This document shows positions 5,107 to 6,427 of a DNA stretch of 64,000 nt, in pieces. The notes beneath the pieces were generated by a model. That model did no database searches, was not told the origin of the DNA, and was given only the letters and a program-made list of their open reading frames with translations. Within the stretch, counting starts at the first letter, position 1, and every line of letters starts with the position of its first letter. The translations under genes and the position numbers were made by a program. This stretch comes from Gammaproteobacteria bacterium CG_4_10_14_0_2_um_filter_38_22 (GTDB lineage: Bacteria > Pseudomonadota > Gammaproteobacteria > Coxiellales > Coxiellaceae), in NCBI GenBank assembly GCA_002793195.1, contig PFPT01000008.1, positions 17,780 through 81,779 of the forward strand, given 5' to 3'.

Positions 5107-6427
5107 GAAATGAAGTTGCAATATTGGCACAATTATCAATGATCACCCGGCCACTCGCAACATTGCCTGCTATTGCAAATGCCATAGCAATACGGTGATC
5201 TCCAAATGAATTGACTTGCCCACCTGAAAACAATTGCGGGCCTTCAATCTCCACACCATCATCATACTCCTGTACTGTTACACCGATATTTTTAAAACCA
5301 GCGCACATGGCATGAATGCGATCACTTTCTTTCACGCGTAATTCTTTGGCTCCTCGCAAAATTGTTTTTCCATGTGCTGTTGCTGCCGCAATCAAAATCA
5401 CCGGGAGTTCGTCGATTGCTTTTGAAATTAATGCTACTGGAATTGTAACACCCTGTAATGATGCATAGCGGACATGGATATCTGCAACTGGTTCTGCACC
5501 AAAAAATGTTTCATTAAAAACAGTAATATTCGCACCCATTAATTTTAGTATATCAATTATTCCAGTACGAAATGGATTCACACCCACTTGTCGAATGATC
5601 ACATCAGCATGTTTGGTAATCGCTGCCAAGACAATAAAAAATGCAGCAGAAGAGATATCGCCAGGTATTTTTATAAACCTCCCCCTGCCCCCTTTTTTCA
5701 AAAAAGAGGGGGATGCACAACCATTTCTCAATGAGAGGAAATTGTTTGCCTTATTTATTTCACCCCCTTTATAAAAAGGGGTCGGTGAGCACAGCGAACC
5801 CAGGGGATTTTTCAACATTCTTTCAGTATGATCTCGCGTCGGCGTTTTTTCTCGCACCTGTGTTTTACCATCCGCATACAAACCAGCCAATAAAATACCC
5901 GACTTCACTTGTGCGCTGGGAATCAGCAATTCATAATCAATGCCTTTCAATTCTTGATTACCTATCATTTCAATCGGCGCTGTATTATTCGAAGACAAAT
6001 TGATTTTTGCACCCATCAATCGCAATGGCGCTGCAATGCGCAGCATGGGTCGTTTAGATAAAGCAGCATCACCAATCAAAATGGAATTAAATTTTTGTCC
6101 CGATAACAATCCACACAGCAAACGCATAGATGTGCCTGAATTGCCACAATCAAGTGGATTGTCTGGGCGCTGCAAACCATTTAAACCAACACCATGCACA
6201 AAAGCGCTTGTTTTTTCATCATCGATATCAATCAAAACGCCCAAGGCTCGCATAATATGCATAGTTGAAAGCACATCATCGCTCAATAACATATTTTCAA
6301 CATACGTCTGCTTATCTGAAATCGAAGCTAATATAATCGCCCGATGTGAAATTGATTTATCACCCGGAACAACGATGTCACCAAAAATGGTGTTGCTAGG
6401 AGAAATGGAGAGACAAGTATGGATCAC
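5063..6427 (-). CDS. aroA: 3-phosphoshikimate 1-carboxyvinyltransferase (EPSP synthase) carrying an in-frame insertion
   Basis: Motifs 'PGDKSISHRA', 'LDCGNSGTSMRLL', 'TRDHTERML', 'PGDISSAAFF', 'RVKESDR' and 'DHRIAMAFAIAG'. The segment between TERML and PGDISS is about 20 aa longer than I recall for B. subtilis EPSPS, the homologue I compared with from memory. Confidence 0.9.
   Translation of the reverse strand: MIHTCLSISPSNTIFGDIVVPGDKSISHRAIILASISDKQTYVENMLLSDDVLSTMHIMRALGVLIDIDDEKTSAFVHGVGLNGLQRPDNPLDCGNSGTSMRLLCGLLSGQKFNSILIGDAALSKRPMLRIAAPLRLMGAKINLSSNNTAPIEMIGNQELKGIDYELLIPSAQVKSGILLAGLYADGKTQVREKTPTRDHTERMLKNPLGSLCSPTPFYKGGEINKANNFLSLRNGCASPSFLKKGGRGRFIKIPGDISSAAFFIVLAAITKHADVIIRQVGVNPFRTGIIDILKLMGANITVFNETFFGAEPVADIHVRYASLQGVTIPVALISKAIDELPVILIAAATAHGKTILRGAKELRVKESDRIHAMCAGFKNIGVTVQEYDDGVEIEGPQLFSGGQVNSFGDHRIAMAFAIAGNVASGRVIIDNCANIATSFPNFVAVAHSLGMRF
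5681..5815. repeat. MITE-like palindromic element inserted in-frame in aroA
   Basis: Two inverted modules: 5681-5715 (CCCCCTGCCCCCTTTTTTCAAAAAAGAGGGGG) and 5763-5815 (CCCCCTTTATAAAAAGGGG...CCCAGGGG). Each has its own CCCC(T)n/(A)nGGGG palindrome. They are G/C-run-rich in an AT-rich genome. They translate as ..PFYKGG.. and ..SFLKKGGRGR.. inside AroA. Confidence 0.5.

Follow-up and report, generated by a model that had tools for sequence, protein, structure and literature searches.

Why should the aroA gene of an environmental member of the Coxiellaceae contain, within a well-conserved enzyme, 46 codons that are built of inverted palindromes and are absent from the nearest relative of the protein? 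The gene, which encodes a class II-like 5-enolpyruvylshikimate-3-phosphate synthase (EPSPS), is located in a 64,000-nt window (the whole stretch of DNA analysed here) of contig PFPT01000008.1 of Gammaproteobacteria bacterium CG_4_10_14_0_2_um_filter_38_22. The most plausible answer, to which we assign a probability of roughly 0.85, is that the extra codons represent a copy of a palindromic repeat that is small and non-autonomous; this repeat, denoted R1, resembles the hairpin-forming doublets of repetitive extragenic palindromic sequences (REPINs, REP) and the transposable elements of the miniature inverted-repeat type (MITEs). The copy would comprise a pair of units in inverted orientation, in each of which a tag AAAATCC(C)n is combined with a hairpin 2 of the form C5-T5-CAAA-G5 and, optionally, with a hairpin 1, and would have landed in an aroA loop that had already been shortened in the respective clade.

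The loop in question connects the RDHTERML and PGDISS motifs, and its length was measured identically, between these two motifs, in all AroA rows. In the window protein, the segment comprises 49 aa (KNPLGS...GRGRFIKI), exactly the peptide given in a preliminary description of this DNA, which had set it against about 29 aa in Bacillus subtilis EPSPS; 29 aa is indeed the length in relatives outside the clade (Legionella P0063, G013, G015 and G024, including Legionella pneumophila). Most of the 35 closest AroA relatives, drawn from a search of 5.8 billion proteins, have only 8-13 aa, and the nearest of them, P0002, lacks the insert and has the loop SYIKNNHQNM.

A BLAST comparison of the 151-nt aroA region yielded many matches of 52-56 nt, with 80-85% identity, to its first module in three of the seven other species of the genus. 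Hairpin scans of the own genome found about nine C-run/G-run hairpins, too few to define a family, and R1 emerged only from the sister genomes. It is represented here by a covariance model built from 15 intergenic and pheT copies of the sister species G001, G003 and G006 and from no aroA copy. The R1 unit of about 52 nt comprises a 5′ tag, AAAATCCCCCC(GG), a variable hairpin 1, and hairpin 2, (CCG)ACCCCCTTTTTCAAAGGGGGT(GAAA); six of the seven base pairs in the stem of hairpin 1 show compensatory changes among the 15 copies. No Rfam family matches R1. Both units of the aroA insert match the model, which comprises the tag AAAAUCCCCCC, hairpin 1, and hairpin 2 ACCCCCUUUUUCAAAGGGGGU, and hairpin 2 of each can be summarized as CCCCCTTTTTCAAAGGGGG. 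The gene and the parts of the insert are the following.

5063-6427, minus strand: aroA (3-phosphoshikimate 1-carboxyvinyltransferase, class II-like EPSPS), an intact, single-copy open reading frame (ORF) of 454 aa
5674-5811: the whole in-frame insert, 138 nt or 46 codons, from the second base of the K206 codon to the first base of the I252 codon
5758-5811, minus strand (gene sense): long R1 unit, 41.9 bits, with E 4.2e-11 for 101 kb of sequence and 8e-10 genome-wide
5800-5811, minus strand: tag of the long unit, AAAATCCCCTGG
5783-5799, minus strand: degenerate hairpin 1 of the long unit
5763-5781, minus strand: hairpin 2 of the long unit, CCCCTTTTTATAAAGGGGG
5716-5757: spacer, encoding about INKANNFLSLRNGCA, with weak dyad symmetry and a tag-like AATTTCCTCTC inside
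5674-5715, plus strand (inverted relative to the gene): short R1 unit, 22.1 bits, E 7.3e-5, without hairpin 1
5674-5687, plus strand: tag of the short unit, TAAACCTCCCCCTG
5688-5712, plus strand: hairpin 2 of the short unit, CCCCCTTTTTTCAAAAAAGAGGGGG

The insert thus consists of two inverted repeat units with the tags pointing outward and a spacer between them. The end tags, TAAACCTCCCCCTG (5674-5687) and CCAGGGGATTTT (5800-5811), are mutual inverted copies, and palindromes are formed by CCCCCTTTTTT/AAAAGAGGGGG at 5688-5712 and by CCCCCTTTATAAAAAGGGG at 5763-5781; both units retain a well-preserved hairpin 2, whereas hairpin 1 of the long unit has decayed. The two mutually inverted modules of the preliminary description are borne out, because the model trained elsewhere hits both, on opposite strands and within 1-7 nt of the coordinates first proposed. 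The long unit shows 80-85% BLAST identity to at least 10 copies in G006 and G003, and its peptide, KNPLGSLCSPTPFYKGGE, parallels ENPPGSLREPTPFFKGGD in PheT and ENPPDSLRSSTPFFKGGD in AroA of G006. The short unit, which on the gene strand reads as SPSFLKKGGRGRF and reaches no more than 10.7 bits against R1 when scored in the other orientation, resembles both the 39-nt short form of the repeat in G006, G041, G064, G066 and G067 and an inverted unit of 34.6 bits at the same AroA site of the metagenomic sequence P0019.

Could such palindromes have arisen by chance or slippage in a native, fast-evolving loop, with no mobile element involved? The loop is hypervariable in length and sequence throughout the clade, several members of which carry runs of His/Ser dipeptides in it (SHSHSHSHL, FYAHAHAHL), and the own genome has no other full copy of R1. 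This explanation nevertheless appears highly improbable given the E-values of 4e-11 and 7e-5 obtained with a model trained elsewhere, the 80-85% identity over 52-56 nt to other species, and the presence of R1 units in PheT, MutS and a second site of AroA (see below). Hairpins of the C-run/T-run...A-run/G-run type number nine in the 1.93-Mb, 38% G+C genome, two of them in aroA, compared to two in the mirror-order control. Because both units reach such E-values and such hairpins are rare genome-wide, the pair is not a chance occurrence and, judged by its sequence, the insert belongs to the R1 family. An intein, an intron and a programmed frameshift were considered and rejected: the insert measures only 138 nt, the reading frame runs through it unbroken, and no motifs of these kinds were found.

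Within the genus, at E<=0.01, there are 59 R1 matches in G003, 43 in G006, 37 in G001, 6 in the own genome and none in the four other species of the genus. Across the family, R1 was detected in 11 of 64 genomes, which belong to 4 of the 24 genera; genus g3, with 13 genomes, gave no matches (its 2.0-Mb two-contig member scored only in part). In G001, G003 and G006, the matches are spread over many contigs, and most copies are intergenic, just past stop codons. Single units usually start a few bases past the stop codon (TAAAATCCCCCC). Other arrangements include tandem arrays in G006 (loci L072, L073 and L079), perfect long palindromes in G003 (L080 and L097), about 10 convergent inverted doublets in G003 (L088-L096), with tags outward and spacers of 20-90 nt, and, in several genera, the 39-nt short form that lacks hairpin 1. 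The inverted ends of the doublets, AAATCCCCCC...GGGGGGATTT, are formed by the units themselves, giving the terminal inverted repeats of classical MITEs. An intergenic locus of G046 (L134) combines a long unit with an inverted short unit that ends in GGGGAGGATT, the two being separated by a short spacer. The tags-outward arrangement of the aroA insert is accordingly the doublet form of R1, and the same composite recurs in G046.

The G006 arrays listed above, together with locus L127, show whole units in tandem, unit variants with the tag AAATCCTCTCG and 27-nt half-hairpin repeats. In G042, several contigs begin or end inside R1 units, which implies that these repeats fragment assemblies.

The own genome presents a different picture. 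The preliminary description expected further copies of the element there; BLAST of the 151-nt region found no second copy, and the R1 model detects only degenerate relics, in 3-4 loci altogether. Three of the six matches are the aroA modules, and the other relics lie on contig C36 (about 35.1-35.4 kb) and contig C72 (about 50.7 kb). The same description weighed the possibility that close orthologues have a loop of equal length and that the motif has no other copies; most of the closest relatives, as shown above, have 8-13 aa, and copies, if not in this genome, are abundant in sister species. The own-genome relics and the aroA units have the tag variant ...CCCTG, compared to CCCCGG in the sister species, and this shared variant suggests a lineage-specific subfamily that is almost extinct. 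In sister species, R1 would be proliferating, or would have done so recently, with units on their own, in inverted doublets or in tandem, and the aroA copy would be the best-preserved relic in a genome where the family has nearly died out. A second low-copy hairpin repeat of this genome, with the core CTTCCCTCTTTTGCAAAGGGAGGAGAAAATATTTTGTGCAAC, was seen only in intergenic copies (C25:26131, C28:23886, C36:35367, C45:137373-137410, C51:10445 and 26736, C62:57744, and C15:14989) and may be a degenerate relative of R1.

The spacer raises the question of whether the insert is a single element. It shows no similarity to other R1 spacers in a BLAST comparison, and its fold is a bulged 13-bp hairpin (z -1.66) equalled by 11 of 200 shuffled sequences. 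Two solo units, a long one in the forward and a short one in the inverted orientation, might therefore have been inserted separately on either side of a remnant of the native loop, the central 14 or so residues, INKANNFLSLRNG, being original AroA sequence. In keeping with this possibility, short native loops of the relatives often contain an NN motif (LACNNIEIK, LNVNNAHFIK, LSLNNISCID, SYIKNNHQNM), which is also seen in the window centre, ANNFLSL, and residues 227-233 of the AlphaFold model show slightly higher confidence and a short strand. However, the NN likeness is of low complexity in AT-rich sequence, no native residues remain beside the element in G003 and G006, and doublets with outward tags are standard in G003 (about 10), with the long unit, spacer and inverted short unit recurring together in G046. 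The tag-like AATTTCCTCTC of the spacer and its bulged dyad also point to a single doublet. Two separate insertions are thus a possible but less probable history, and the central 14 aa, left undecided in the preliminary description, are probably part of the element rather than native AroA.

Apart from the window, R1 is found in frame in several protein-coding genes; about 40 R1 loci were read for gene context.

PheT, G006: in-frame R1, ...WDFENPPGSLREPTPFFKGGDRLPLHPG..., in a protein with Pfam tRNA_synthFbeta at 1.5e-44
MutS, G001: in-frame R1, ...LAELENPPGFVATKPAPFFKGADQVSLELENP...
AroA, G003 and G006: in-frame R1 in the same loop as in the window, 54.6 and 53.6 bits, respectively
AroA, P0019, same loop: inverted short unit, SPPLQNGGEGGFY, 34.6 bits
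AroA, second site near residue 65: full R1 units, 64 bits in P0028 and 57 bits in P0019

Several of these loci merit comment. The G001 mutS unit (L119, C53:18300-21900; unit at about C53:20056-20112) lies between the two copies of a 13/14-nt direct repeat, GAACTGGAAAATCC / GAACTTGAAAATCC, which ends in GAAAATCC and whose 3′ half is the R1 tag; the repeat can be read either as a long target duplication or as a sign of tag-directed insertion. In G003, an 80-nt palindromic R1 element is located at the gcvPA/gcvPB junction (L097, C15:3554-4233), with one frame open through both genes, which could be a fusion or a mere open spacer. The aroA of G006 (L039/L074, C42), a 67%-complete metagenome-assembled genome (MAG), is split into two ORFs of 314 and 171 aa about 50 codons past its in-frame unit, through a frameshift, pseudogene formation or an assembly error.

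The history of the loop can be traced in a maximum likelihood tree of AroA from which the loop columns were left out. The window protein belongs to a fully supported clade of 36 rows, whose segment has shrunk from the ancestral 29 aa to about 9-13 aa; other EPSPS of the class II type have, after the RDHTExML helix, two beta-strands, and these account for the approximately 20 aa lost. The R1-bearing rows fall into four separate sub-clades, each beside short-loop neighbours: the window with P0002; G003 with P0033; G006 with P0021, P0023 and P0024; and P0019 with P0016. The tree calls for at least four gains at this loop, and the approximately unbiased test rejects a monophyletic grouping of the carriers (p about 1e-54), with the carrier group set by matches to the R1 model, although chosen after the tree was viewed. 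The R1-positive genomes G041, G042 and G046, which belong to other genera and have the long loop, have no R1 unit in aroA, and the shortened loop therefore appears to be a recurrent site of landing or of survival. We infer that the involvement of aroA in all three R1-bearing members of the genus with this aroA type is far beyond chance, given about 4 in-gene copies per genome and about 1,700 genes. This recurrence may reflect either permissiveness, such that only harmless insertions survive, or targeting.

In all carriers, the unit occupies the same codon position, and its orientation mostly agrees as well, which would also fit a single ancient event: the short-loop clade would have received the insertion in its ancestor and passed it on by vertical descent, with decay or deletion to 8-13 aa in most lineages. 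Such an event could also have caused the loss of the beta-hairpin throughout the clade, and the loop of P0028 keeps only a tag-like NPPG (AAATCCCCCCGG). The tree, which calls for at least four gains, would then demand many more losses. Moreover, the copies are close to the consensus of their own genomes (54.6 bits in G003, 53.6 in G006 and 64 at the residue-65 site of P0028), unlike relics that would be older than a protein divergence of 40%; the CCCTG tag is shared by the aroA units with the C36 relic rather than with sister species; and P0007 and P0010 are near-identical save for a 43-aa insert. A single ancient insertion is accordingly unlikely.

Other insertions occur in AroA of this clade. 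At the same loop, P0007 (L110, 5001-6392) is longer by 43 aa and shows a CCCTCTTTTCAAAAGGG hairpin, and G004 (P0006, L020) carries GTTCGC...GCGAAC hairpins in a direct repeat; P0024, P0004, P0027 and P0029 have further insertions, some at other sites. R1 does not match any of these insertions in P0007, P0006/G004, P0024, P0004, P0027 and P0029, which may belong to other repeat families.

Does the gene that hosts the insert still encode an active enzyme? PF00275 was found on all AroA homologues, and in a 37-sequence alignment, the window protein has all of the more than 100 invariant columns, including DKSISHR, GNSGT, RPM, SAQVKS, DE, KE...DR and DHR. Its best match in the Protein Data Bank is AroA of Coxiella burnetii (3SLH/3TR1/3ROI; E 8e-127, 49% identity), which resembles it in the whole fold and in the catalytic motifs. 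The HMMER alignment joins residues 9-207 and 249-453 with chain residues 9-206 and 228-431, such that the unaligned loop has about 41 residues in the window protein, about 21 in that of C. burnetii, and, for comparison, only 8-13 aa in most close relatives of the former. The AlphaFold2 model, based on a 37-sequence alignment, has a mean predicted local distance difference test score (pLDDT) of 89.7 and a predicted template modelling score of 0.88; the model matches 3SLH in Foldseek with a TM score of 0.89-0.92. Values of pLDDT below 50 are confined to residues 208-226 and 234-246. The window gene is the only EPSPS match genome-wide, the same genome has an intact chorismate synthase gene, and the identical protein is present in assemblies from NCBI, JGI, ENA and Logan, where its contigs are about 84.8 kb long. 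Based on these observations, aroA looks functional, as predicted from sequence and fold, and the insert looks tolerated, as a disordered excursion at the surface that links the RDHTERML helix to the strand leading to PGDISS, with about 46 added residues that are probably floppy. A position of the insertion in a surface loop, which the preliminary description proposed to check, is in line with the model, in which the core is confident and part of the insert unstructured; the loop itself, however, had already become some 20 aa shorter in this clade. Because the insert has a length divisible by three and no stop codons occur in frame, it would be transcribed and translated together with aroA, and the enzyme would tolerate the resulting peptide, probably neutrally.

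The window aroA lies between cmk and serC. A 279-aa ORF on the plus strand (4267-5106) is located between cmk and aroA, its 3′ end overlapping that of aroA (5063-5106); in the relatives P0028 and P0019, cmk directly follows aroA, and in P0007, an unrelated 268-aa gene occupies this place. The EPSPS of the genus or family members G001, G002, G008 and G023 are only 30-33% identical to the window protein, which indicates a different enzyme class and hence replacement within the genus.

If not neutral, the insert might have been co-opted, either through hairpins in the mRNA that affect pausing, stability or processing between the two halves of aroA, or through the Gly/Lys/Pro-rich peptide acting as a binding or regulatory loop. 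REP elements past stop codons in Escherichia coli stabilize the upstream mRNA, and intergenic R1 copies likewise sit right after stop codons; in addition, one loop has acquired the repeat independently several times, and hairpin 2 was kept in both aroA units while hairpin 1 decayed. Conversely, R1 shows no terminator-like or promoter-like sites above background and no Rfam family, the peptide is predicted to be disordered and varies in sequence by lineage, and most relatives do without it, so that a selected function seems quite unlikely.

The own genome is a 72-contig MAG, and related repeats break the assemblies of G042, such that a repeat could in principle have been collapsed or chimerically joined within aroA. 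This is the least probable of the explanations considered here: both flanks belong to the same gene and share one frame, the insert is diverged and unique, the protein is identical in four assemblies, and analogous in-frame copies come from independent samples.

Several observations weigh against the interpretation of the insert as a copy of a mobile repeat. The own genome has no second full-length R1 copy, so that mobility cannot be shown here. No consistent target-site duplication was evident at 11 doublets, and the flanks of the G003 doublets read as if they extend the inverted repeat (TAAAT...ATTTA); in G003 and G006, the aroA element replaces native loop residues, whereas plain cut-and-paste insertion predicts addition. 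The score of the short unit is modest, and the spacer hairpin lacks significance. Finally, neither Y1_Tnp/RAYT genes (RAYT, REP-associated tyrosine transposase) nor IS630-type DDE_3 genes co-occur with or adjoin R1. PF01797 (Y1) matches are present in seven of eight genomes of the genus whatever their R1 status, with none within 9 kb of an R1 unit. A RAYT/IS200-type Y1 transposase and, suggested by the TA-like ends, an IS630-type transposase were each considered as a partner of R1 and set aside for want of association. That the sister-species copies are instead aroA fragments spread by recombination is unlikely, given the intact hairpin 1 with its covariation and the positions after unrelated genes.

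As a tentative hypothesis, in our view rather doubtful, R1 could be directed to, or copied beside, native sequences that mimic its 5′ tag, AAAATCC...GG. The codons for K-I-P-G-D of aroA, AAA ATC CCT GGN GAT (AAAATCCCTGG; in G005, AAAATCCCCGGC), are located just 3′ of each loop insertion, and in tandem arrays, a unit is set before the tag of the next unit. Such native-tag targeting would amount to sequence-homing, possibly by template switching, with no dedicated transposase, and would explain why one aroA codon was struck at least four times. The tag-like native sequence 3′ of in-gene copies is significant for G006 aroA and G001 mutS (p 0.004) and not for the other six of the eight copies.

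How does R1, taken as a mobile repeat, compare with known elements? The Rickettsia palindromic elements (RPE-1 to RPE-10), which are about 100-150 bp long, have, like R1, a sizeable minority of copies located in frame in proteins (Ogata et al. 2000/2002, as summarised in PMC10969869). R1 is similarly short, palindromic, non-autonomous and multi-copy, occurs in a small-genome host of the intracellular type, and lies in frame in unrelated housekeeping genes, namely pheT, mutS and aroA (at two sites), where it would give rise to fold-compatible extra surface peptides; the RPE-like in-frame insertion of the preliminary description is thereby upheld. It is set apart from the RPE by host (Coxiellaceae of the Gammaproteobacteria as opposed to Alphaproteobacteria), unit length (about 52 nt, or 80-170 nt for doublets, as opposed to about 100-150 bp) and tag, is mostly intergenic, and hit one loop independently in different lineages, whereas RPE sites held in common usually go back to inheritance; no sequence kinship with the RPE would be expected. 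In C. burnetii, QMITE1 (300-400 bp) has 2-3-nt direct repeats and a sigma-70 promoter and overlaps ORFs, and QMITE2 (150-190 bp) includes a GTAG REP, has 7-11-nt direct repeats, targets IS1111 and is found mainly at gene 3′ ends (Wachter et al. 2018; PMC5896051). Both share with R1 the host family and about 50 small hairpin-forming copies, and QMITE2 also has long and short versions. R1 differs from QMITE2 in the 52-nt unit, the tag AAAATCCCCCC, and the lack of GTAG in the alignment of its copies and of consistent direct repeats at doublets, and from QMITE1 in the 138-nt size of the aroA insert and in promoter-like sites that do not exceed background. The proposed likeness to these elements accordingly stands for the in-frame habit, which is that of RPE, while size, tag and sequence place R1 outside QMITE1/2 and host, size and tag suggest that it lies outside RPE as well.

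A further parallel involves one-end tags combined with imperfect palindromes: REP elements and REPIN doublets with their RAYT transposases were reportedly described by Bertels and Rainey in 2011. R1 shares with them this layout, the occurrence as singletons, inverted doublets and clusters just downstream of genes, the apparent lack of a consistent target duplication and stems kept by covariation. The REP superfamilies bear GTAG/CGTC tags (PMC3733652). R1 has neither tag, possesses two hairpins and is neither flanked by Y1_Tnp genes nor co-occurs with them. Our literature search brought up no report of elements of this kind in Coxiellaceae other than Coxiella. By these comparisons, R1 appears to be a distinct family with an RPE-like habit in environmental Coxiellaceae.

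In-frame palindromic repeats have long been treated as a peculiarity of Rickettsia. The most interesting feature of the present case is the repeated, independent and frame-preserving colonization of one shortened aroA loop, along with a second site in the same gene: a single loop stripped of its beta-hairpin took up R1 in several lineages, as a half unit, a palindrome or a doublet, while the nearest relatives keep the empty site. Repeats of the R1 type lengthen ORFs, interrupt MAG assemblies and can lead the annotation and alignment of marker genes astray. The aroA loop is also a natural experiment, in a well-studied enzyme of known structure, on how repeats choose, or survive at, their sites, how far an enzyme tolerates a foreign peptide, and whether peptides of this kind give rise to new protein features.

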